Origin: Squalus acanthias
Lineage: Eukaryota
DNA: 64,000 nucleotides
Assembly: GCA_030390025.1 (NCBI GenBank)
Contig: CM059432.1
Location: 42,968,001-43,032,000 of the forward strand
Direction: 5' to 3'
Notes under the pieces: generated by a model
The model's database searches: none
Told to the model about the DNA's origin: nothing
The model's input: only the letters and a program-made list of their open reading frames with translations
Translations under genes and position numbers: made by a program
Shown here: positions 31,103 through 50,834 of the stretch, piece after piece
Position numbering within the stretch: the first letter of the stretch is position 1
How the letters are laid out: each line of letters opens with the position of its first letter

Positions 31103-33121
31103 AGCACCATGAGCAACGAGAACAGTTTCTATTGCACCTATGAAAAAGCTAAAGAGGGAAAAAAAGGTAAAATAATTACCTTACACAATAATGGCAAACC
31201 ATATATCAGGGAATATTACTACAAAACATGGCACAAAAATTTATATGAAATATAATAAAATACTAAAAAATAATAAGGAAATACAGGCAATGCTCCCAAG
31301 TCTGCAAGATCTAAATAAAGAGCTGGCAAAAAAGCAGGAGCCAAAAATCCTACAACAGAGAGGACTAGCATTAAAATAAATGTACCCCTGTGCCAGTATA
31401 TCATCTGAATGTTGCGGCCACACAATAATTGAAATAATTTGCCTTAATACAATTTAAAGAAAGTTTACCTAAACTCCACCCTTGGTCCTACCCTCCAGTC
31501 TTCTGTTTAGTTTTGGACTTGGCAATAGTGACATCCCAACTGATATATAATTTAGACTGTAGTTTTGCATGGGCGTATGAAGATCTAGAATGTCATATTT
31601 TCTCGAACAGAATTAATAGAAAGAAATACTTTCATTTATATAGCTCCTTTCATGACCTTAGGATGTCCCAAAGCATTTTACAGCCAATCAAATACTTTTG
31701 AAGTGTAGTAATGCAGAAAACGCGTCAGTCAATATGCGCACAGTAAGGTTCCACAAACAGCAATGAGACAATGACCAGATAATCTGTTTTTTGGTGAGAA
31801 TACATGAACTCATTTCTCTTATTTGGAAGGAGGAGAGCATGCCAGGGGATCTCAGAGATGCCATAATCGTGACCATCTTCAAGAAAGGTGACAAGGCCGA
31901 TTGCGGTAACTACAGAGCAGTTTCCCTGCTGGCTGCCACAGGGAAAGTCATCGTAAGAATCCTTCTCAATCGCCTTCTCCCAGTGGCTGAAGAGCTCCTC
32001 CCAGAGTCGCAATGCGGATTCCGCCCACTAAGGGGCATAATAGACATGATCTTCACCACACGTCAAATATAAGAGAAATGCAGGGAACAGCACCAACCGC
32101 TGTACATGGCCGTCTTTGACCTCACAAAGGCCTTCGACACTATCAACCGTGAGGGATTATGGAGTGTCCTCCTCAAATTCGGCTGCCCTCAAAATTTTGT
32201 CACCATCCTCCGCCTGCTTCACGACGACATGCAAGCCGTGATCCTGACCAACGGATCCACCACAGACCCAATTCACGTACGGACCGGGGTCAAGCAAAGC
32301 TGTGACAGTACTGCCCCCCGATTATCAAAATCCATGACGAGGCCTTGGACAATGTGGATCACTTTCCATACCTCGGGAGCCTACTGTCAACAAGGGCAGA
32401 CATCGATGATGAAGTCCAACACCGCCTTCAGTGTGCCAGTGCAGCCTTCGGTCGCCTGAGGAAGAGAATGTTTGAAGACCAGGACCTCAAACCCGGCACC
32501 AAGCTCATGGTCTACAGACCAGTAGTGATTCCCACCCTCCTGTATGCTTCAGAGACATGGACCATGTACAGCAGGCATCTCAAAGCACTGGAGAGGTACC
32601 ACCAATGTTGCCTCCGCAAGATCCTGCAAATCCATTGGCAGGATAGGCACACCAACATCAGTGTTCTCGCTCAGGCCAACATCCCCAGCATCGAAGCTTT
32701 GACCACGCTCGATCAGCTCCGATGGACGGGCCACATCGTCCACATACCCGATACGAGACTCCCAAAACAAGCTGACGTAATAAAGACTCACTACGCACTT
32801 GAACATAAAGCAAGGCTTTAATCAACTTGTAACAAAACATGGAGGTCTAATTAGCAGTCACTAGCTTCCTGTTTCCAGATTGTCTCTGCCCAAGGTGGGC
32901 CCATGCCTGAGTATTTATACTCCCTGGACGGCGCCCCAGCTGGCCGCCCAGTAGTACTTCCTGAGTTGTTACTTGCGATTTATGACATTCTTCCTCCCTA
33001 AAAGGTTTGGAAGTCCAGTCTTCCTTTAACGGACTAGGCGGACCAGAAATAGCCGTAGACGTTTAGCTCTCTGCTTGTGACCGGAAGGCACGTCTCCCCG
33101 GACCGTGTCCTGGTCCCTGGG

Positions 33122-36100
33122 TCACTTGGCCCGTACCGGTAAGTCAGTAGAGTCCGCGTCGTCCTGATCATCCTGTGGAGGACTGGGAATAGCATGACTC
33201 CGGGTGCGGGTCCCCACAGGTGCTGAGCTGGCCTCATCCCGGGTCGTGGCTGGAGATTGTCCGGCGTCCTGGTTTCGGGTGGCCATCCTACGGGTAGCGT
33301 CCAGCTCCCTGAGTTGATCCGGTAGCGTTGCCGGCAGATCCCCCGATGTCCCAAGCGGGGCGTCATTTTCATAGGGGTGCGGAGTGTTGATATCCTCGTC
33401 ATGGGATCCTTCATCATTCGGGCCCGTGTGACCGGTTGGGCAGGGAGCCAGATCTCTGAGCGAGACGGTGGCCTCCCGGCCATCAGGGTACCGTACGTGC
33501 GCATACGTGGGGTTTACCTCTGTTAACTCCACCTCGTCAACGAGAGGGTCGTTTTTGGCAGACCGGACGAACCTCCGGAGTAGCACCGGGCCTGGAGCCA
33601 TCAACCATGACGGTAGAGACGTCCCATGTGTAGAGCGACGCCGGAATTTGAAGAATCGCTCATGAGGCGTGACATTAGTAGATGTGGAGAGAAGAGACCT
33701 GATAGAGTGTAACACGTCGGGGAGCACCGTTTCCCACTGCTGGTCCGGTAGGTTGCGTGACCTTAGTGCCAGACGGACAGCGTTCCAGATGATGGCATTG
33801 TATCGTTCAACCTGTCCGTTACCGATTGGGTGATATGGTGTCGTCCTACTTGAGGCGATTCCCCGTTGGGAGAGATAACTTTTAAGTTCACTCGACATAA
33901 AGGAGGGACCCCGATCAGTGTGGATAAAATTGGCCGTCCCGCAAAGGGAAAAGACCTGATCGAGGCATTTAATTACCGTAGAGGTAAGCATATTAGGGCA
34001 GGGGAAGGCGAAGGGAAAGCGTGAATACTCGTCCACCATCGTAAGTAGGTAGGTGTTCCTTGTCGACGAAGGCAATGGCCCTTTAAAGTCTATGCTGAGC
34101 CTCTGCATAGGCTGCATTGCATGTATGAGTAAGCCATCTGATGGGCGAAAGAATTGTGGTTTCAATTCTGCACAAATCCTACAGGAGGAGCATGTTTTCT
34201 TTACGTCCTCGGTTGAAAATGGTAGATTTTTGGAGCGCACAAAGTGCAACATGCGGGTCACACCAGGATGGCATAAGTCCATATGCAAATCCGCCAGAGT
34301 CGACGTTGACATTGAGGAGCAAAATGCCCGTGTGAAGGTATCTGGGGCCACGTTCTGTTTGCCGGGTCGGTAACGGATAGTATATCCAAAGGCAGCCAGC
34401 TCCATCCTCCAGAGTTGAATTTTATTATTTTTGATTTTCGTGCGCCTCCGGTTATCCAACATGAAGGCCACAGAGCGCTGGTCAGTTATAAGCGTAAAAT
34501 GACGCCGAGCAAGAAAATGACCCCATTGGCGTATAGCCTCGATGATGGCCGTAGCCTCCTTCTCGACGGGGGGGTAATGGAGCTCGCTACCCTGCAAGGT
34601 TCTGGATAGGAATGCCACGGGTCGGCCACCTTGATTCAAGGTAGCGGAGATCGCCAGCTCCGATGCATCGCATTCAACCACAAAAGGAAGATTTTCGTCA
34701 ATGGAGCGAAGCGTGGCTTTCTCCAGCTGTCGTTTGAGGAGGTTGAAGGCAGAAATAGCCGTAGCTTCCAATGGAAAAGACTTCGCATGGAGCAGGGGCT
34801 GTATTTTATCGGAGAAGTGTGGTATCCATTTTGCGTAATAAGCAAACATGCCAAGTGCCCGACGAAGAGAGCCGAGGTTCGTCGGGGGAGGGAGCTCCTG
34901 AAGTGGACGAAGTCGCTCTGGGTCCGGTTTAATAACACCGTTGCCCACCCAGTAGCCAAGAATGTTCACCGATGGCACCGACTTCACCGATTTGGATTCG
35001 TTTAACGTTAAGTGGCGACGGCGGAGTACGTCAAAAAATCTCTGAAGATTGGCGTCATGCTCCTTTTGATCATGGCCGGCAATAGTGATATTGTCTAAAT
35101 ACGGAAAGGTATCCGTCAAGTTCTCTTGCCGGACTAGGCCATCCATGGCCCGTTGGAAGACGGCCACCCCATTGGTGACCCCGAATGGAAGGCGGCGAAA
35201 CTGGAAAAGCCGACCATTGGCCTCAAAGGCCGTATACTTCTTGTCGGAGTCTTGCAGTGGCACCTGATGGTACGCGCTTTTTAAATCGAAGGTCGAGAAT
35301 ACCTTGTATTTGGCAAGGTTGTTGACCATGTCATCTATGCGTGGCAGCGGGTAGGCATCCAGATCGGTATATTGATTAATAGTCTGCGAATAATCGATAC
35401 ACAGACGTTTTTTATGTTGTTTTAAGGGATTCCTCACAATGACGACCTGAGCCCGCCAGGGAGATGAACATGGCTCGATAATACCGTCGACTAAAAGGCG
35501 AGAGATTTCCGCCTCAATAAACGCTCGATCGTCTTGGCTAAAGCGCCGCGATTTGGTGGCTATGGGTTTACAGCGGGGGGGAAGATTGGCAAACAGGGAG
35601 GGTTCACCGAGTAAGGCCGCCAAGAGTGCACAAAACGGCACCTTAGAAATGGTAAACTCCGGCCTTGACCCTCCAAACTCAAAAGTGATCTTCTTGTGCT
35701 GCTTCTGGAAGTCCTGTCCCAGAAGCACATCGCTGCATAAGTTTGCGAGTACTCCGAGCCGGGTGGAGAGATACGTGCGGCCGTTGAGGATGAGGTTGAC
35801 AAGACAGAAGCCAGAAGAATTGGTGGTCAGAGTCGTCAGAGCCATTGCAATCTCCCTGTCCGAGGGATAAATGTGCAGTTTTAACCTGTTGACAGCCCGC
35901 TTACTAATGAAGCTGTCAGAGCTGCAGGAGTCGATTAGCGCGCTTAGAGTGTGCCCATTTACTGAAACCTTCGTGGCTGCATGGGACAAACTTTGGGGAA
36001 AAACAGCCTGTGATGGGAGGAGGGGCAATTTTCCCTTCGGCAACTGTAGCCTTAACAGTAGTTCTTGGGGGAGGAGCAGCTCCATAGATAGCAGCTGTGA

Positions 36101-36157
36101 AGCTAACAGGAGCTCTCGACCGGTATACTTTAGAGGAGCGGCCTTTCTTGTTAGCAA
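33122..36157 (-). CDS. pol: Pol (protease-RT-RNase H-integrase), in the +1 frame relative to gag
   Basis: LIDSCSS, FDLKSAYHQ, LPFG, YLDN, CDAS, TDQ, HHCC zinc finger, DFKGP/TDRG/VERYN integrase motifs; uninterrupted ORF. Confidence 0.93.
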   Translation of the reverse strand: MLTRKAAPLKYTGRELLLASQLLSMELLLPQELLLRLQLPKGKLPLLPSQAVFPQSLSHAATKVSVNGHTLSALIDSCSSDSFISKRAVNRLKLHIYPSDREIAMALTTLTTNSSGFCLVNLILNGRTYLSTRLGVLANLCSDVLLGQDFQKQHKKITFEFGGSRPEFTISKVPFCALLAALLGEPSLFANLPPRCKPIATKSRRFSQDDRAFIEAEISRLLVDGIIEPCSSPWRAQVVIVRNPLKQHKKRLCIDYSQTINQYTDLDAYPLPRIDDMVNNLAKYKVFSTFDLKSAYHQVPLQDSDKKYTAFEANGRLFQFRRLPFGVTNGVAVFQRAMDGLVRQENLTDTFPYLDNITIAGHDQKEHDANLQRFFDVLRRRHLTLNESKSVKSVPSVNILGYWVGNGVIKPDPERLRPLQELPPPTNLGSLRRALGMFAYYAKWIPHFSDKIQPLLHAKSFPLEATAISAFNLLKRQLEKATLRSIDENLPFVVECDASELAISATLNQGGRPVAFLSRTLQGSELHYPPVEKEATAIIEAIRQWGHFLARRHFTLITDQRSVAFMLDNRRRTKIKNNKIQLWRMELAAFGYTIRYRPGKQNVAPDTFTRAFCSSMSTSTLADLHMDLCHPGVTRMLHFVRSKNLPFSTEDVKKTCSSCRICAELKPQFFRPSDGLLIHAMQPMQRLSIDFKGPLPSSTRNTYLLTMVDEYSRFPFAFPCPNMLTSTVIKCLDQVFSLCGTANFIHTDRGPSFMSSELKSYLSQRGIASSRTTPYHPIGNGQVERYNAIIWNAVRLALRSRNLPDQQWETVLPDVLHSIRSLLSTSTNVTPHERFFKFRRRSTHGTSLPSWLMAPGPVLLRRFVRSAKNDPLVDEVELTEVNPTYAHVRYPDGREATVSLRDLAPCPTGHTGPNDEGSHDEDINTPHPYENDAPLGTSGDLPATLPDQLRELDATRRMATRNQDAGQSPATTRDEASSAPVGTRTRSHAIPSPPQDDQDDADSTDLPVRAK

Positions 36158-36968
36158 AGGCCCGTGACTGGCATACCTTGGAAAAGTGTCCTTTCTTGCT
36201 GCAATGATTGCAGGTCACATTACGAGCCGGGCAAAATTTTCTGTGATGGCACGCCCCTCCACAAAAGAAACACTTTCTTCCTGATTGCCAGGATGCTGCT
36301 AGGGCGGGGTCGTCATCAGCGAAGGCCTCTAGGGTAGGGTCGTCGTCCGTTAGAGTAGAGACAACATCAGTGGGGGCATCCGCCCGAGACCTACCGAAAG
36401 ACTCATTAAAGGAGATAGCCGCCGCCCGTGCACGTGGTGGGAGATAAGTGTCTGCATTTTTCTTGGCCAAGTCCAAGGAACACGCCTGGTCATAAGCAGC
36501 CCGTAAATTGAGGGTTTTATTTTCCAGCAGGCGCTGACGTATAAAAGGGGACGCGATCCCATTGATAAAGGAATCGCGGATTAGTTCCTCTTGATACTGT
36601 TCAGCTGTAACTGCTTTAAGGTCACAATCCTTGCTGAGCCTGCGAAGTTTCTGGAGAAATTCATCGAGTGATTCCCCAGGCTGCTGCCGAGTTGTGGCCA
36701 GTAGGTGTCGAGCAAAGATTTCATTTGGGGACTTGACATATAGCTGCTGTAAGATTTCGATAGCAGTGTCATAGACTATACAGTCCTCAATATAATCATA
36801 CACATGAGGAGACACGTAGTTGATAAGCATTCGTAACTTATTAGGGACATCCGCCCCACATTCTTCAAGAAGGTTGCTAAAGGTACGAAACCAATGCTTC
36901 CATACCTTCGCTGCCGCAGGTGCATTCGGGTCCAGGTCGAGACGAGCGGGTCTGAGGAGTTTTTCCAT
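35916..36968 (-). CDS. gag: Gag with two zinc knuckles
   Basis: 350-aa ORF; CFFCGGACHHRKFC and CNHCSKKGHFSKVC motifs. Confidence 0.9.
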   Translation of the reverse strand: MEKLLRPARLDLDPNAPAAAKVWKHWFRTFSNLLEECGADVPNKLRMLINYVSPHVYDYIEDCIVYDTAIEILQQLYVKSPNEIFARHLLATTRQQPGESLDEFLQKLRRLSKDCDLKAVTAEQYQEELIRDSFINGIASPFIRQRLLENKTLNLRAAYDQACSLDLAKKNADTYLPPRARAAAISFNESFGRSRADAPTDVVSTLTDDDPTLEAFADDDPALAASWQSGRKCFFCGGACHHRKFCPARNVTCNHCSKKGHFSKVCQSRAFANKKGRSSKVYRSRAPVSFTAAIYGAAPPPRTTVKATVAEGKIAPPPITGCFSPKFVPCSHEGFSKWAHSKRANRLLQL

Positions 36969-38676
36969 GATGGATCAGTTTCTTGCCCTAGTTCCCTTCT
37001 GTGGTTCGAATTGCAGCTGGTTGTTCCGAATCACCCAAAGCATGGAGACGATACCAAGTTGATTAAATTGACGTAATAAAGACTCACTACGCACTTGAAC
37101 ATAAAGCAAGGCTTTAATCAACTTGTAACAAAACATGGAGGTCTAGTTAGCAGTCACTAGCTTCCTGTTTCCAGATTGTCTCTGCCCAAGGTGGGCCCAT
37201 GCCTGAGTATTTATACTCCCTCGACGGCGCCCCAGCTGGCCGCCCAGTAGTACTTCCTGAGTTGTTACTTGCGATTTATGACACAAGCGTTCTACTCGGA
37301 GCTCCGACATGGCAAGAGAGCCCCAGGTGGGTAGAGGAATCGCTTCAAGGACACCCTCAAAGCCTCCTTGAAAAAGTGCAACATCCCCACCGACTCCTGG
37401 GAATCCTTGGCCCAAGACCGCACAAAGTGGATGAGAAGTGGAAGGCACCGAACACCTCGAGTCTCTTCGCCAGGAGCAAGCGGAAGCCAAGCGCAAACAA
37501 CGGAAGGAGCGCACATCAACCCAAGCACCCCACCCACCCGGCCCCTTCAACCACTGCCTGCCCCACCTGTGACAGAGACTGTAGGTCCCGCATTGGACTC
37601 ATCAGTCCCCTGAGAACTCATTTTTAGTGTGGAAGCAAGTCATCCTCGGTTCCGAGGGACTGCCTAAGAAGAAGAATCTGTTTTTTGGTGTTGGTTGAGG
37701 GTATAATATTGACCAGAACACTGGGTAGGACTCCCCTGCTCTTTTTCGAATAGTGCCATGGGATCTTTTACATTCACCCAAGAGGGCAGACGTCCTTGGT
37801 TTAACGCCTCATCCAAAATACGCTACCTCCGACAGTGCAACACTCCCTCAGTACTGCACCAGAGTCAGTCTACATTTAGTGCTCAGGTCCTTATTGTATC
37901 TATTCAATATATACATTTATATTAAAGCTTCAACATTTTACAGTGATTGTATTACACAAGGAACATGGACACTCAAAGTGCAGCTGTAGAGAAAAAAAAA
38001 TCCGAATTTCCCATTGTCTGGAAAACAGTCTGGTACTGAACTGATGATCTCCTGAGCATTCTACTCATTGCCTAAATTCAAAGGTACTAATGATGATACA
38101 AAAGTCTTTTAACTCTATTTCATAACTAATCCCTTTGCAGGAATTCCACAGTGTATGACATGCAGCATTTCTAAGTCAAGATCAGAATTCCATTTTTTTT
38201 GCAATGCCCACAAAAGTGAAAACTCACAGGAAGCCCACGACCATTAATCAATTTGCTACAAGTTGTGCTCAGAGGAATTTCTACCCCCAAGAAAAGTTTT
38301 CAAACAATACAATTATTATATTTTACTAAGCAGTACAGAAATACAATAGTTTCATAGTACTTAATCAATATGTAATTATTAAGTGTTCGAGATACAGTTT
38401 ATTCTTCATTTCCTCACTCTTTTTCACTCTTCCTTACTTCCCCTTGTTGTTTGTCCTAACAAAAGGAGTCATTCTTCTAGATATGAGGGAACTGATAACA
38501 CGGGGAATGGGTATAGATTGTGCACTGTCACTTATAAACTCAAAATGCGCTGTTGCATTGTTCAGCTTTATTGACCTGGTCTTGTTGCAGAAATGTCTTT
38601 GTATGACGGGATTTCCGTTCGTCTCTTCAACCTTGTTCATCCCCTGCTTAAAAATTTCTCTTCCTTAACCTTTTCC

Positions 38677-43728: not shown

Positions 43729-44624
43729 TGGAACCTTTCTGAGGAAACAGAACAGAAGCAGAGTAAAAGCACCACATTAAACTTGACGCAAATGTAGGTC
43801 ATTAGTACAATGAATGTATGAGAATATCCATTCACAAATCAACAATGTTTTTGTCTCCGCAAATGTCAGCAAGCTCCAGGCTGTGAACAGATTCACAGCC
43901 AATAACATCCTCCCAAAAGGGATAAAGATTTTTATACGCTGTTCACCACCTCCAGTTCTTTACCTGTGGCTACAATAAATGCTGATTTAGTCTGTAAAGA
44001 AAAGAATGTATTGAATGAGAAAAGATTTGCTAAGCAATAGTCAAAACAACATTGATATCTGTGTTATTTTAGGCATAGCTAAAAAAAAGAAATGCTGGCA
44101 TTTATGTAGCGCTTTATAACTTCATTGAAACATTTCAAAGCACTTCACACAGTGAATTACTTTTGAAGTGCAAAGACTGTTATATAGATTGAAATGTGAA
44201 GTACCTTCCGAGGGATGGGCAATAAATGCTGGCCTTGCCAGCGACATACACAACTCGTGAATGAATAAAAAAAGATGTTATTCAGAAAAGCTTTGTTTAC
44301 TCAGTTCTATCTGTATTTTGCTAACGACACTCAACAATCTTTCGCATTTGCAACTTTTCCTGTTTCTGCTTTGTGTTTGTTGTAACCTGTGGCGGATCGC
44401 CACCTAAACGGGCGCAATCCACTTTTCCGTCCGTGGACAATAAATCGGGCACCTTGCCTTTAAGGCGCATGCTGCCTTTAAGGCATGAAAAAAGGAGTGG
44501 GCGTGGCCTCAGGGTTTTGCAGAGAAATGTGGTAGCAGCCATTTTGCCAAGGAGATGTATTAAAAAGCCATGTGTTCCACATATTGACTCGGCCTCAATT
44601 CGTGCTTCGCGGCAGCCCCAACAT

Positions 44625-44638
44625 TGGTGACCCCGACG
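44625..44638 (+). promoter_or_regulatory. Primer-binding site complementary to tRNA-Trp
   Basis: TGGTGACCCCGACG one nt after the 5' LTR; matches the avian retrovirus Trp PBS. Confidence 0.9.
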
Positions 44639-44663
44639 CTCAGAACGTATTCCGAGCACTGCA

Positions 44664-45693
44664 ATGGCGGACACGAACGCAGTTTCCGTGAAACTGCCGG
44701 AGTTTTGGGAAAACCAGCCCGAAGCCTGGTTCTTCCAAGCCGAGTCCCGATTCCGGCTGCGACACATCACCACAGATGGGACGAAGTACGACTACCTCGT
44801 CACATCACTCGGTAGCTCCACAGTTACAAAGGTCCGGACAGCGCTGCAGAACCCACCAGAGGATGGCAAGTATGCACATCTTAAGGCCGCGCTCCTTAAA
44901 AAATTTACGGCCTCGACATACCAGCGAAACTGCCACCTCCTCGACCTTCCAGGCCTCGGTGATGCCTCACCGTCAGACCTCCTCTTCCGCACGCGGTTCA
45001 TCCGCCAGCTACCTCTCAGCATCCGCCCAGCGATCGTGGCGTCCGGCCTCACGGACCTGGAAGCCCTGGCTGATGAGGCCGACAAGCTGCTGTCCGCTCA
45101 CTCCAGCCGCAACGTCACTCCGGACCTGGCAGCCACTGCCAGGGCGCGCCCCTCACCGGCCACCACGCGGCCACAAGGCCCAGCCACCAGGCTCACGGGG
45201 CCTTCGCGTCCCACTAACCCGGGCCACTGTTACTACCACGCACGGTTCGGTGCCAGGGCACAACGGTGCACACCTCCCTGCTCTTTCAAGTCCGCCCCCG
45301 TACCAGCCCCCGCGATGGCCGTGGGCCACGCGGGCTCCCTGCTGTACGTCACAGATGACAAAACCGGCCGCCGGTTCCTGTGCGACACTGGAGCTCAGCG
45401 CAGCATCATCCCGGCCTCCGCCGTCGACATCCAAAAGGGCAAACGAGGACCGGCGCTGGCTGCTGCTAACGGCTCAGACATCCGGACATACGGCACCCGC
45501 ACAGTCACCCTCGACCTCGCTGGTCGCCGCTACCGATGGGAGTTCATCACTGCCAAGGTGCTCTCCCCTCTCATCGGCGCAGATTTTCTGTGCGCCCACG
45601 GCCTACTGGTAGACATCCCTCGACACCGCCTCGTGGACATGAACACCATGTCCCCATCCTGGGCACCATGGCCCACCATCAACCTGCCGACAT
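44664..45693 (+). pseudogene. gag: Gag-protease of the CsRn1-like element
   Basis: VKLPEFW..PEAWF, CYYHARFGARAQRCTPPC (CHCC), LCDTGA; frame change near 45650; cut by the CR1. Confidence 0.88.
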
Positions 45694-47512
45694 AAGAACA
45701 TAAGAACATAAGAAATAGGAGCAGGAGTAGGCCAATCGGCCCCTCGAGCCTGCTCCGCCATTCAATAAGATCATGGCTGATCTGATCCTAACCGCCAATC
45801 TACTATCTATCACAGAACCATCTCCTGCATCTAACAGAATTGCACACGAAATAGGAGCAGAATCAGGCTACACAGTCCCTGGGCCCGCTCCACTACCCAC
45901 AGGGCCATGACCGATCCGAACCTAGACTCATGTCCAAATTCCTGCCCGCTCCCCGTAACCCTTAATGCCCTTTACTTCTAGGAAACTGTCTATTTCTGTT
46001 TTAAATTTAATTAATGTTGTAGCTTCTACAGCTTTTTGTGGCAGCATATTCCATGGACCTACCACCCTCTGAGTGAAGTAGTTCCTCCTCATCTCAGTTT
46101 TGAAAGAGCAGCCCCTTATTCTAAGACTATGTCCCCTAGTTCTCGTCTCACCCGTCATCGGGAACATCCTCCCCGCATCCACCCGATCCAACCCCTTCAC
46201 AATCTTATATGTTTCAATAAGATCGCCTCTCATTCTTCTGAACTCCAATGAGTAGAGTCCCAATCTACCCAACCTCTCCTCATATGACCACCCCCTCATC
46301 CCCGGGATTAACCGAATGAACCTTTTTTGCACTGCCTCGAGAGCAAGGATGTCTTTCCTTAAGTAAGGACACCAAAACTGTATGCAGTATTCCAGGTGCG
46401 GTCTCACCAATACCTTGTACAACTGAAGCAATACCTCCCTATTTTTATATTCTATCCCCCTAGCAATGAAAGCCAACATTCCATTTGCCTTCTTAATCAC
46501 TTGCTGCACCTGCATACTAACCTTTTGAGTTTCGTGCACCAGGACCCCCAGATCCCTTTGCACTTCAGTACTCTCCAGTTTCTTGCCATTAAGATAATAA
46601 ATTGCTCTAGGATTTTTCCTGCCAAAGTGCATCACCTCACACTTTCCAGTGTTGTATTCCATCTGCCAAATCTCTGCCCACTTACTTAGCCTGTCTATGT
46701 CCCCTTGCAGGTTTTTTATGTCCTCCTCATTCACTACTTTCCCTCCCATCTTTGTATCATCTGCAAATTTTGATATGTTACACTTGGTCCCTTCCTCCAA
46801 ATCGTTAATATAGATTGTGAAGAGTTGGGGACCCAGCACTGACCCCTGTGGAACACCACTAGTTACTGATTGCCAGTCTGAGAATGAACCATTTATCCCA
46901 ACTCTTTGCTTTCTGTTAGATAGCCAATCCTCTATCCATGCCAGAATATTACCCCCAATTCCGTGATTTTTTACCTTAAGCAATAATCTTTTGTGTGGCA
47001 CCTTGTCAAATGCCTTTTGGAAGTCTAAATACACTACGTCCACTGGTTCCCCTTTATCCACTCTATATGTTACTTCCTCAAAGAACTCCAGCAAATTTGT
47101 CAAACATGACTTCCCCTTCGTAAAACCATGCTGACTTTGTCCTATTAAATTATGATTATCCAAATGTCCTGTTACTGTTTCCTTAATAATGGACTCCAAA
47201 ATTTTACCTACCACAGATGTTAGGCTAACCGGTCTATAGTTACCAGCCTTCTGTCTACTGCCCTTTTTAAATAAGGGTGTTACATTAGCAGTTTTCCAGT
47301 CTGCCGGGACCTTAGCGGAATCCAGGGAGTTTTGAAAAATTATTACCAATGCATCTACAATCCCTACCGCCACTTCCTTCAAGACTCTAGGATGTAAGCC
47401 ATCAGGTCCAGGTGATTTATCCGCCTTGAGTCCCATTATTTTACCGAGTACCACTTCCTTAGTGATTTTGATCGTGTTTAGCTCCTCTCCCCCTATAGCC
47501 CCCTGTTTGTCC
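45694..47512 (-). mobile_element. Very young 5'-truncated CR1 LINE
   Basis: ACAT at both junctions (45690-45693, 47513-47516); (TTCTTATG)n tail. Confidence 0.95.
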
Positions 47513-47514
47513 AC
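45928..47514 (-). CDS. CR1 ORF2 RT domain and C-terminus (uninterrupted, 5'-truncated, start codon fortuitous)
   Basis: 528-aa open frame with KSPGPDG, YLDFQKAFD, GVPQGSVLGP, FADD. Confidence 0.85.
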   Translation of the reverse strand: MDKQGAIGGEELNTIKITKEVVLGKIMGLKADKSPGPDGLHPRVLKEVAVGIVDALVIIFQNSLDSAKVPADWKTANVTPLFKKGSRQKAGNYRPVSLTSVVGKILESIIKETVTGHLDNHNLIGQSQHGFTKGKSCLTNLLEFFEEVTYRVDKGEPVDVVYLDFQKAFDKVPHKRLLLKVKNHGIGGNILAWIEDWLSNRKQRVGINGSFSDWQSVTSGVPQGSVLGPQLFTIYINDLEEGTKCNISKFADDTKMGGKVVNEEDIKNLQGDIDRLSKWAEIWQMEYNTGKCEVMHFGRKNPRAIYYLNGKKLESTEVQRDLGVLVHETQKVSMQVQQVIKKANGMLAFIARGIEYKNREVLLQLYKVLVRPHLEYCIQFWCPYLRKDILALEAVQKRFIRLIPGMRGWSYEERLGRLGLYSLEFRRMRGDLIETYKIVKGLDRVDAGRMFPMTGETRTRGHSLRIRGCSFKTEMRRNYFTQRVVGPWNMLPQKAVEATTLIKFKTEIDSFLEVKGIKGYGERAGIWT

Positions 47515-50253
47515 ATGGCGTCACAGTGCCATGCCCGGGCCACGGATAACTACTCGGCACTCCTGGCCGAATTCCCGGCCCTTACCAATCCGACCTTCTC
47601 CGCGGAGGCCGCCAAACATGGGGTGGAACACTTCATCCCCACCACAGGCCCCCCAGTGTACGCCCACGCCCGCAGGCTGGACCCGGCCAAACTGGAGATC
47701 GTGCGGACCGAGTTTGCCACCATGGAACAGCCCTGCATCATCCGCCGCTCCAACAGTCCCTGGGCCTCCCCACTCCACATCGCTCCCAAACCAGGCGGGG
47801 GTTGGCGCCCCTGCGGGGATTACCGCCGCCTCAACGACGCCACCACCCCTGATCGGTACCCCGTGCCGCACATCCAGGACTTCTTGGCTAGACTGGCCGG
47901 CCGCTCAGTCTTTTCCAAGGTCGACCTGGTGCGCGGCTACCACCAAGTCCCCGTCCACCCTGCGGACGTCCCCAAGACGGCCGTAATCACCCCCTTCTGC
48001 CTTTTCGAGTTCCTGCGGATGCCCTTCGGCCTCAAAAACGCGGCCCAGGCATTCCAACGGCTCATGGACTCGGTCCTTCGGGACCTGAAGTTCCTGTTCG
48101 TCTACCAGGACGACATCCTGGTAGCCAGTTCCTCCAAGCAGGAAAACCTTGAACAACTTCGCATCCTGTTCGGGCGCCTCAGCGACCACGGGCTCATCCT
48201 CAGCCCAGCCAAATGCCAGTTCGGCCTGGACAAGATCGACTTCCTCGGCCACCACATCACCCATGCTGGGGCCATTCCCCTGCCCACCAAGGTACAGGCC
48301 GTCCAACAATTTCCCCGCCCCACCACCATCAAAGGCCTCCAGGAGTTCCTCGGGATGGTGAATTTCTACAACCGCTTCATCCCCAAAGCGGCGTCCCTCA
48401 TGAGGCCCCTGTATGAAGCCCTCCGGGACAGGAGCGGCAAGATGGCGGTCGAATGGACGGCAGACGCGTCAGTCGCCTTCGACTCCACCAAGACCGCGCT
48501 CGCCAACGCCACCCTGCTCGCGCACCCACGGCCCAATGCCAGGGTAGCGCTCACCATGGACGCCTCCGACCACGTGGTCGGCGCCGTGTATGAGCAGTGG
48601 GTCGACGGCGCCTGGCAACCACTTGCCTTCTTCAGCCGCCAACTACGCCCCCCGGAGGTCAAGTACAGCACCTTCGACCGCGAGCTCCTCGCACTGTTCC
48701 TGGCGGTCCGCCATTTTCGGTTTTTGCTGGAGGGCCACCCCTTCACTGCGTTTGTCGACCACAAACCCCTGACATTCGCAATGGCAAAGACAACCGACCC
48801 CTGGTCCGCCAGGCAGCAGCGCCAGCTCGCGGCAGTGTCCGAGTTCACCACGGACATCCAACACGTCTCTGGCCGAGACAATGTGGTAGCCGACTGCCTC
48901 TCCCGCCCCGCCATCCACGCCGCACACCTGGCAGTCGACTACGCTCAACTCGCAGCAGACCAGATCACCGACCCTGATCTGCTCTCCGCACCTACCAACC
49001 TACCAGTGCTACGCCTGGCCGACGTCGTCTGTGGCCCGACCGCAGTCACGGTCAAGTGCGACATATCCCTATGTCAACCTCGGCCCGTCGTCCCAGCGTC
49101 CTGGCGCCGCCGGGTATTCGAGATTCTCCACAACCTCTGCCACCCCGACGCCCGCGCATCCATCAAATTGGTAGCCAACCGCTTTGTCTGGCGCGGCCTT
49201 CGCAACGATGTGCATACTTGGGCCAACTCCTGCCTAGCCTACCAACGGGCCAAGGTGCAGCAACACACGAAAGCACCCCTCGAGGAGTTTACCGTCCCTT
49301 CGCGTAGATTCGACCACATCCACGTGGACATCGTCGGGCCCCTGCCGCCGTCGCAAGGCCACACGCACTTGCTGACGATCGTTGACCGCACCACGCGCTG
49401 GCCCGAGGCAATTCCACTGACCTCTACCACCACCGCCGACATCGCCAGAGCCTTCGTCAGCACCTGGGTCGCACGGTTCGGCGTCCCCTCCGACATGACA
49501 TCGGACAGAGGTCCGTAATTTACCTCTGAACTCTGGACCACCGTCGCACGCAATCTCGGGGTGACCATTCACCGCACCACAGCGTACCACCCCCAAGCCA
49601 ACGGACTGTGTGAGCGGTTCCACAGATCCTTGAAGGCATCTCTTCGAGCCAGCCTCCAGGACGGCGCCTGGACCGACCAACTCCCGTGGGTCCTCCTCGG
49701 CCTGCGCACCGTGGTTAAAGAAGACCTCCATGCATCGGCAGCAGAGCTCGTGTACGGTCAGCCGCTGCGCGTACCCGGCGAGTTCATGCCCACCGCCACG
49801 ACACCCTGGTCAGCCGACCAGCAACGCCACGACTTCGCCTCACCGGCGCTACAGTTTGCCCCGGTGCCCATTGCCCGACACGGTGAATCCACCTCACACG
49901 TCCCACTAAGCCTGCACCAGGCACGGTTCGTTTTCGTCCGGCATGACGCCGACCGTGGACCCCTTCAACCCCCGTACGACGGGCCCTACAAGGTGCTACA
50001 GGCTGGGGACAAATTTTTCACCCTGCAAGTGGGCGACAGGACCGAAAAAGTGTCGGTTGACCGACTCAAGCCAGCACACTCGGAGCCCGGTGAGCAGGTC
50101 CCTGCAGCTCGTCCACCGCCACGCGGCCGACCTGCCCTCAAGCCAGTTCACCCGGCTGCTCCACGCCCGGCCGTTCCACGTCCACCGGCTTCCTGCAAGA
50201 GCCGCTCCGGCCGGCCCATCAGACCGCCGCACCATCTCGTCCACACCTCCTAA
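47513..50253 (+). pseudogene. pol: Pol (RT-RNase H-integrase) of the CsRn1-like element
   Basis: DLVRGYHQ, MPFGLKNA, YQDD, DAS, HVDIVGP; premature TAA at 49516-49518 in DRGP*F; GLCERFH; PYDGPY. Confidence 0.92.
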
Positions 50254-50834
50254 GCGGATTCTGGGGGGAGCTGTGTGGCGGATCGCCACCTAAACGGGCG
50301 CAATCCACTTTTCCGTCCGTGGACAATAAACCGGGCACCTTGCCTTTAAGGCGCATGCTGCCTTTAAGGCATGAAAAAAGGAGTGGGCGTGGCCTCAGGG
50401 TTTTGCAGAGAAATGTGGTAACAGCCATTTTGCCAAGGAGATGTATTAAAAAGCCATGTGTTCCACATATTGACTCGGCCTCAATTCGTGCTACGCGGCA
50501 GCCCCAACAAACCCATCTCAAATGCCCTTACAATCTCTCATATATGCCACTTTCATTAAGTAACTGGATAATTTTAACAATGCTCTTCAGTGAACTTACA
50601 AGCCGAGAACTCCTTGATTAGTGAGTCTAAGAAATATAAACAATTTCCAAGCATAAACAAATATAAGAATGTGAGTTGATTGACACTTGTCCACCTTCTC
50701 AACACTTCAAATTGGAGATTTTCTTACACTCGCCCCTTGACGTACAGTAGGTGGTAGATTCAGTGCTAACTCTGACTGCAGGAATTGGCTCTTCTGCCTG
50801 CTGCACTCTCTGTGTGGTACCCTTTAAACCAGTA

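Follow-up and report, generated by a model that had tools for sequence, protein, structure and literature searches.

Self-Complementary Primer Site of a Squalus acanthias Gypsy Element

A clade of animal Ty3/Gypsy elements, represented here by a complete and young member in Squalus acanthias, very probably starts its own copying with its own RNA, by self-priming in some form. The form favored by the evidence, and a probable one, is Tf1-like self-priming outside the chromoviruses, in which the 5′ LTR arm, cut at ATTAA^A, would serve as the normal primer. The initial annotation had read the site past the LTR as a candidate self-primer, and this reading was supported by covariation across families, an exact register to the LTR end, and the continuation of DNA from the arm in mis-copied insertions.

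The element is 4.5 kb long and occupies 32773-37283 on the minus strand of the window, which is the whole 64,000-nt stretch of DNA that was analysed. Its two LTRs (215 nt each) are identical at 213 of 215 positions, and their ends were fixed independently by the 3′ LTR, the GCTTG duplication, and the purine tract. The LTRs, target duplication, purine tract, and PR-RT-RH-IN domain order are those of Ty3/Gypsy elements, and the best solved-structure matches were 4ol8 and 7q5b, both of them RT/RNase H entries and the second bearing the name Ty3-G Gag-Pol. The features, all on the minus strand and in transcript order, are as follows:

37284..37288, minus: 5′ target-site duplication GCTTG, 5 bp
37069..37283, minus: 5′ LTR, 215 nt, TG...CA, 213/215 identical to the 3′ LTR
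37208..37215, minus: TATA-like box TATAAATA, putative promoter; similar box at a similar distance in both sister families of the genome
37113..37125, minus: predicted self-primer, the LTR arm CAAGTTGATTAAA, ending in the predicted poly(A) signal ATTAAA (37113-37118)
37113..37114, minus: inferred cut site ATTAA^A, mapped in two sister families, with no match in the window's family
37091..37112, minus: predicted hairpin from the first base past the arm, bulged in the window's family
37071..37092, minus: predicted stem-loop in U5 that stops 2 nt short of the LTR end, not general in the clade
37055..37067, minus: primer binding site TTTAATCAACTTG, 1 nt (A, 37068) past the LTR
37054..37054, minus: first base past the pairing, hypervariable (among 76 copies, A 54, G 20, C 2)
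35916..36974, minus: gag frame of 352 aa between stops, with two CCHC-like knuckles; in the window copy its frame differs from that of pol
33122..36214, minus: pol frame with protease, RT, RNase H, and integrase, without chromodomain (Pfam)
35090..35101, minus: RT active-site motif YLDN, not YxDD
32988..33000, minus: polypurine tract TAGGGAGGAAGAA, adjoining the 3′ LTR
32773..32987, minus: 3′ LTR, with its arm copy at 32817-32829
32768..32772, minus: 3′ target-site duplication GCTTG, 5 bp

On the minus strand, the 5′ LTR end ..TTACGTCA is followed by a single A (37068) and then by TTTAATCAACTTG (37055-37067), the exact 13-nt complement of CAAGTTGATTAAA (37113-37125) across an intervening loop of 45 nt. 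The perfect complementarity claimed in the initial annotation was thus borne out. When the bases of the LTR were shuffled 100,000 times, a complement of 13 nt to the anchored site never arose and one of 12 nt arose twice. The 146-nt leader fold had a z of -3.1, with an equally good fold in 2 of 200 shuffles. ATTAAA is the sole AATAAA/ATTAAA on the LTR sense strand, as had also been claimed, although the variants CATAAA (LTR position 4) and TATAAA (position 69, the TATA box) are present; the TATA box, previously placed ∼90 nt upstream of the arm, is TATAAATA (37208-37215), 83-90 nt upstream of it.

Gag and pol form two overlapping frames in the window copy and a single 1,315-aa frame in many other genome copies. 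The initial annotation had seen no chromodomain, and none was matched in the pol of the window element by Pfam at E ≤ 0.1 or present among the domains listed for 120 pol homologs. The RT motif was YxDN in 97 of these 120 homologs (P0123-P0242), YxDD in 15, and unparsed in 8, and YxDN is carried by a recently active family, that of the window element. No publication on the YLDN RT motif was found in the literature search; an equivalent change in the Ty1 RT is said to have kept polymerisation and blocked transposition.

The host genome (3.7 Gb) contains at least three related families, F1 (the window's), F2, and F3, which together have 3,190 normal 5′ junctions with an exact 11-nt arm and primer site (3,247 in a recount). 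No relative was found in a collection of viral contigs.

Conservation Across Related Families

Related families were recruited by a gag alignment search of metagenome contigs, in which 181 loci were confirmed and the best 80 kept, together with 60 loci from the element's own genome. A usable upstream region was present in 126 of these 140 loci, the other 14 being dropped because they were too short or had no gag start, and grouping by gag DNA likeness gave 32 families (F1 and F2 counted as one), with gag proteins about 30-70% identical. Named relatives, at the protein level only, belong to crustaceans and cnidarians, to a gastropod, a sea cucumber, and a tunicate, and to hagfish, rays, and a catshark.

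With anchors at CA+1, 29 of the 32 families kept the pairing without a shift of register, forming at least 10 of the 11 pairs, and three lacked it. The initial annotation had proposed looking for covariation in related elements, and the complementarity kept in these 29 families is formed by 26 distinct 11-mers. Without anchors, and judged by the best member, 26 of the 32 families had a perfect inverted repeat 11 bp or longer vs. none of 56 coding-region controls. At positions -1 to -11, 315 of 319 cells were Watson-Crick and one was G-U, a count that is circular because the families were selected on the 11 anchored pairs; positions -12 and -13, outside this selection, were paired in 27 of 29 families. 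Positions -5 to -12 were fully paired in 24 of 29 own pairs, compared with 2 of 812 cross-family pairs. On contigs with both LTRs and a cleanly recovered end, the helix began 1 nt past the LTR, and TGG near the LTR end was found in none of the 32 families, in agreement with the earlier observation that in the window copy no TGG directly follows the LTR but rather one A and the self-complementary site. The arm ended in ATTAAA in 10 families and in AATAAA in 8; the remaining 11 had other six-base words there, most of them a near variant. Judged from this sequence conservation, the self-pairing primer site is a trait of the clade.

Two metagenome contigs showed departures of their own: L047 has a compensated change of arm and primer site among near-identical family copies, and in L086 the LTR end and primer site are doubled in tandem before gag.

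Mis-Copied Insertions and the Template End

Pattern searches of the genome for primer sites without the normal leader after them yielded 17 independent insertions (2 in F1, 12 in F2, 3 in F3) in which the primer site runs into the inverted arm and U3. All are defective, and set against the 3,190 normal junctions they amount to about 0.5%. The 18 F1 matches included two independent insertions, one of them tandemly duplicated and both with exact 5-bp duplications, whose inverted part starts from the 3′ LTR hexamer and takes in U3, the purine tract, and some of pol, over 297 nt and 1,625 nt. Exact 5-bp duplications were found at 8 of the 12 F2 loci; two of the loci consist of a whole LTR plus inverted U3, one (L355) reaches through the purine tract, and four (L358, L361, L362, and L363) have as their left end a cryptic TG at LTR position 150, in a CCATGTT motif that could mark the transcript start. 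The same motif occurs in the window's LTR at 37132-37138. The five further loci are LTRs with an 18-28 nt copy of the U5 end inserted past the arm, and these insert-bearing LTRs resume at the last A of the hexamer (four of five) or two bases earlier (one of five).

In F3, three of four pattern-search matches are inverted insertions. A search with LTR sequence only gave four F3 elements, each with a 5-bp duplication and with U3 joined by microhomology to AGCTT, the junction starting at the last A of the hexamer in both LTRs. An inverted arm copy was present in two of the four F3 short-LTR elements, whose own LTRs have no arm, which excludes a simple fold-back of the element's own DNA; one of the two copies ends about 30 nt below a TATA-like box. 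These four mini-elements (L398-L405) have 63-nt LTRs and separate internal deletions. Another F3 element (L415-L416, G000:C1:260201470 and 260205747) has lost most of the arm in both LTRs and retains a normal primer site. A search by upstream-mismatch pattern gave no cut-site junctions in F1, where the seven matches were small indels and one truncated copy, and no clear ones in F3.

The 5-bp duplications at non-native ends indicate that the products were made before integration. One cause would explain most of the insertions, namely a U3-bearing arm primed at the site, on templates that often ended at ATTAA^A, and from the junctions in F2 and F3 the template end is placed at the last A of ATTAAA. 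The mis-copied insertions thereby provide a prediction at the level of single bases, a cut at ATTAA^A before the hairpin. All assignable inverted insertions include U3 or the purine tract, and they therefore point to the 3′ arm or to plus-strand DNA, not to a short 5′ primer; several can also be explained by the end of plus strong-stop DNA mis-annealing to the arm. In the sequences of the F3 short-LTR elements, loss of the 3′ acceptor appears to coincide with failed transfer. Insertions of this kind show how priming mechanisms can be read from genome assemblies.

Proposed Priming Mechanism and Possible Use of the RNA Tail

In the Tf1-like scheme that is favored here, the arm in the 5′ LTR RNA would pair with the site past the LTR, a step for which the complementarity is observed and the fold predicted. 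The element's RNase H would then cut the 3′ end of the arm, where the conserved hairpin begins; the position of this putative cut comes from the sister-family junctions, and the example of Tf1 suggests RNase H as the enzyme. Synthesis of the minus strand would begin at the end so released, since a cut at ATTAA^A leaves two bases (AT) beyond the terminal CA. It would proceed through U5 as far as the new end of the template and then transfer to the short stretch of matching sequence in the 3′ LTR. Two bases beyond the terminal CA are the usual overhang trimmed by integrase. Plus-strand synthesis would finally copy the remaining 11-13 nt of the primer and so remake the primer site, with an untemplated purine added to give the hypervariable base 37054. 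The inverted insertions would arise when the 3′ LTR arm was used by mistake.

All the assignable long copies derive from 3′ molecules, and this raises a rival in which the 3′ LTR arm is the normal primer. The RNA 3′ end would be cut inside the poly(A) signal and pair with the primer site, in a circle or across an RNA dimer, strong-stop DNA would extend to an upstream start, and RNase H would trim the primer to 11-13 nt during strand transfer. The long inverted copies (both in F1, and L355 in F2) cross U3 and the purine tract and reach pol, so that a 3′ LTR molecule is their only source; in four F2 products, minus-strand DNA passed through an uncut 5′ arm to LTR position 150; and the TATA-like box lies well upstream of the arm in all three host families. 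However, the products that support priming from the tail make up about 0.5% of junctions and are all defective, whereas other products have templates ending at the hexamer, as expected from a cut 5′ arm, and in the F3 short-LTR elements failed transfer coincides with the lost 3′ acceptor. This route is consequently considered rather unlikely. The same doubt attaches to its fullest version, in which a large animal Gypsy clade with a YxDN RT would prime with its own RNA tail and a single 13-nt helix would act as poly(A) mask, cleavage guide, and primer; if true, it would be a route distinct both from tRNA priming and from the 5′ self-primer of Tf1.

Hairpin, Poly(A) Signal, and Transcript Start

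A perfect hairpin of 4-7 bp begins at the first base past the arm in 19 of 29 families, compared with 4.6 expected, and none of 2,000 simulations reached 19. Its letters vary between families, for example GCCGA/TCGGT, ACCAA/TTGGT, and GCCAG/CTGGT. The hexamer at the end of the arm was 80-99% paired in the predicted 5′ fold and mostly paired also in the local fold of the 3′ LTR, and in 11 of the 29 families AATAAA/ATTAAA is absent from the arm end. A search for poly(A)-tailed retrocopies gave no matches. Among 16 sequencing runs, all present as contigs, one is recorded as RNA; of four that were compared, two resemble DNA skims and a third had one contig, and none yielded an RNA end.

The predicted fold might bring the element a side benefit by concealing the 5′ poly(A) signal. 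That the duplex serves chiefly as such a mask, as in HIV-1, with priming by something else, is improbable. The arm does end in AATAAA/ATTAAA in 18 of 29 families, with a near variant in most others, and the hexamer is almost fully paired in the predicted 5′ fold, but a mask has no need of a helix that begins, in every one of the 29 families, exactly 1 nt past the LTR end, most of the hexamer in the 3′ LTR is likewise paired in its local fold, no other primer site is present (TGG in 0 of 32 families), and the DNA that continues from the arm at the primer site would be left unexplained.

Hints to the transcript start conflict, pointing variously to the arm itself, to a site ∼11 nt above it, and to the TATA-predicted site, ∼60 nt downstream of which the initial annotation had put the paired segment. 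AGT is found at -11 in 14 of 29 families, which would suit a start at the arm, although pairing extends to at least 13 nt in most families and this start is therefore kept as a hint only. The template end suggested by four F2 products lies ∼11 nt above the arm, and one F3 product suggests the TATA-predicted site. Of the 29 families, 18 lack a TATA-like box; all three host families have one, well upstream of the arm.

Conversion Between the Arms

Of 38 copies whose 5′ arm carries one change, two had a compensating change in the primer site, where ∼0.07 was expected. Both have the 3′ LTR unchanged, and one has an exact target duplication. In these copies, L164 (G000:C16:68347844-68347913) and L156 (G000:C3218:47615-47681), 5′ arm and primer site changed together in a manner that looks like template switching at an inverted repeat, and in L164 the pairing is also lengthened by an extra base. 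In another copy, L189, the arm change is present in both LTRs and the primer site is unchanged. The compensated variants were considered as proof of primer copying and rejected as such because the 3′ LTR is unchanged in both. As read from these sequences, arm-to-arm DNA conversion appears to occur in the elements, and because it also yields perfect pairing, perfect Watson-Crick pairing alone is no proof of primer copying.

Conversion at the DNA level might then uphold the inverted repeat without any role in priming. The 2 of 38 compensated copies, both with unchanged 3′ LTRs, speak for this explanation, but it leaves the register to the LTR end, the AAA end, and the following hairpin unfixed across families, and it supplies no primer, which together make it very improbable.

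Hypervariable Base Past the Primer Site

In the window copy, TGGTATC stands 12 nt past the LTR, and its second G is base 37054, which among 76 F1 copies was A 54 times, G 20 times, and C twice; among 40 copies chosen neither by window likeness nor by variant, it was A in 35, G in 4, and C in 1. The base lies outside CpG, has a maximum r2 to lineage of 0.12 vs. 0.67-1.0 for ten internal markers, and changed 17 times on the tree vs. 2-3 times for six lineage markers; one CpG site in the LTR is just as unlinked to lineage. The base next to 37054 was changed, or an insertion was present there, in 14 of the 18 F1 pattern-search matches. In F2, the first unpaired base occurs in several variants, both substitutions and indels, partly linked to lineage (r2 0.5), and the variable bases of F3 lie 3-5 nt beyond the paired stretch and are also partly lineage-linked (r2 0.42 and 0.73).

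The RT of Tf1 is described as adding untemplated bases and copying its primer (PMC11042837). By analogy, the variability of 37054 likely reflects untemplated addition at the end of the primer copy, although the lineage linkage in F2 and F3 and the offset of the variable bases in F3 count against this reading.

The downstream TGGTATCGTC was also considered as a tRNA site and was rejected because the second G of its TGG is polymorphic. The comparison with host tRNAs proposed in the initial annotation gave a longest match of 5 nt to the site, a result that stands for just 7 distinct sequences, with 63 genes scored and 30 loci fetched. Although this small number and the TGGTATC of the window copy might leave room for a host tRNA, a tRNA half, or another small RNA as primer at either site, such priming is scarcely credible given an A or C at the second G in 54 and 2 of 76 copies, 26 different 11-mers in 29 families that each match their own LTR, the 5-nt limit among the tested tRNAs, and the appearance of a real tRNA site in the neighboring Gypsy of the window, which has the ordinary TGG primer site TGGTGACCCCGAC.

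Comparison With Known Systems

The closest likeness is to Tf1/Tf2 of Schizosaccharomyces pombe and the Tf1/sushi group, in which there is no tRNA site and the primer site is complementary to an ∼11-13 nt LTR stretch (PMC7175516; PMC11042837; PMC5341516; bioRxiv 2022.12.06.519325). The primer of Tf1 is given as the first 11 bases of its own RNA, cut by RNase H (PMC7175516), and the group is characterized as chromodomain-bearing with a three-duplex leader (bioRxiv 2022.12.06.519325). The putative cut at the duplex end and the copying of the primer into plus-strand DNA with untemplated additions, both inferred here, resemble what these sources report for Tf1/Tf2. In contrast to Tf1/sushi, the window clade has no chromodomain, has LTRs of about 150-220 nt and an RT motif that is mostly YxDN, and its arm overlaps a poly(A)-like hexamer. 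The primer in Tf1 is the RNA 5′ end, whereas the arm is here only one candidate for that end, and a local hairpin past the arm replaces the leader duplex. The three-duplex "pretzel" leader of Tf1 was thus not found: the central duplex is present, the leader duplex occurs in 2 of 29 families, and in 3 of 29 the fold of the loop is better than that of its shuffles (z < -1.5).

Self-priming has also been predicted, in PMC6317226, for the plant TAR copia and Tcn1 lineages from a match of at least 10 nt between the LTR and a site 0-5 nt past it. The window element shows such a match, as do the TAR (Houba, Osr-1) Ty1/copia and Tcn1 lineages; these, however, belong to another superfamily or to the chromoviruses and are from plants and fungi.

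Saci-2/lennie of flatworms share the single gag-pol frame and are animal Gypsy elements with no described chromodomain, but they have a tRNA-Leu primer site and a mostly 4-bp target duplication (PMC4558846; PMC12471100). The window element has no such site and a 5-bp duplication, and Saci-2/lennie was rejected as its clade on these two grounds.

In HIV-1, as here, the poly(A) hexamer sits inside a stem. HIV-1 has its polyA hairpin at both RNA ends and is tRNA-primed, whereas the partner strand of the hexamer in the window clade is the primer site itself. The HIV-1 polyA hairpin is reported to regulate the poly(A) signal (PMC2645353).

As to classification, the window element belongs to a clade that may be Cigr-1-like. 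Cigr-1, of a clade found in Ciona, molluscs, and annelids, has an LTR of ∼245 nt, one ORF of ∼1,210 codons, and a Mag-like gag. These features fit the homologs (median 1,214 aa over 61 full ORFs, with one tunicate homolog), although the sizes are not diagnostic. Cigr-1 is reported from molluscs in PMC6238403, whose supplement places it under Mag.

Novelty and Implications

In the literature consulted, self-priming is associated with the Tf1/sushi chromoviruses, and two plant lineages are predicted to use it as well (PMC6317226; bioRxiv 2022.12.06.519325). No publication on self-priming in the present clade was found in a literature search that lacked key older papers and Repbase, and its novelty is hence provisional; the inverted insertions, the template-end junctions, and the post-arm hairpin are new here. 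The findings extend the self-priming signature to a Gypsy clade that lacks a chromodomain and has relatives, at the protein level, in crustaceans and cnidarians, in molluscs and echinoderms, and in a tunicate, hagfish, and cartilaginous fish. Priming without a tRNA must then either have arisen separately or go back to an older ancestor. Elements of this type would presumably have no need of the host tRNA supply and would escape silencing by tRNA fragments at the primer site. Annotation that relies on tRNA matches would overlook this site or assign an incorrect tRNA to it.

Two further arrangements of Gypsy elements were observed. The second Gypsy of the window (44388-50509, plus strand), with the ordinary primer site TGGTGACCCCGAC, has 236-nt LTRs that are 99% alike and a gag resembling that of CsRN1, and it is broken by a minus-strand frame (45928-47520) resembling a LINE RT. 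At L157 (G000:C1:566000-575600), F3 elements stand in tandem with single shared LTRs at a spacing of 4,247 nt, resembling the tandem arrays described for Tf1/Tf2.
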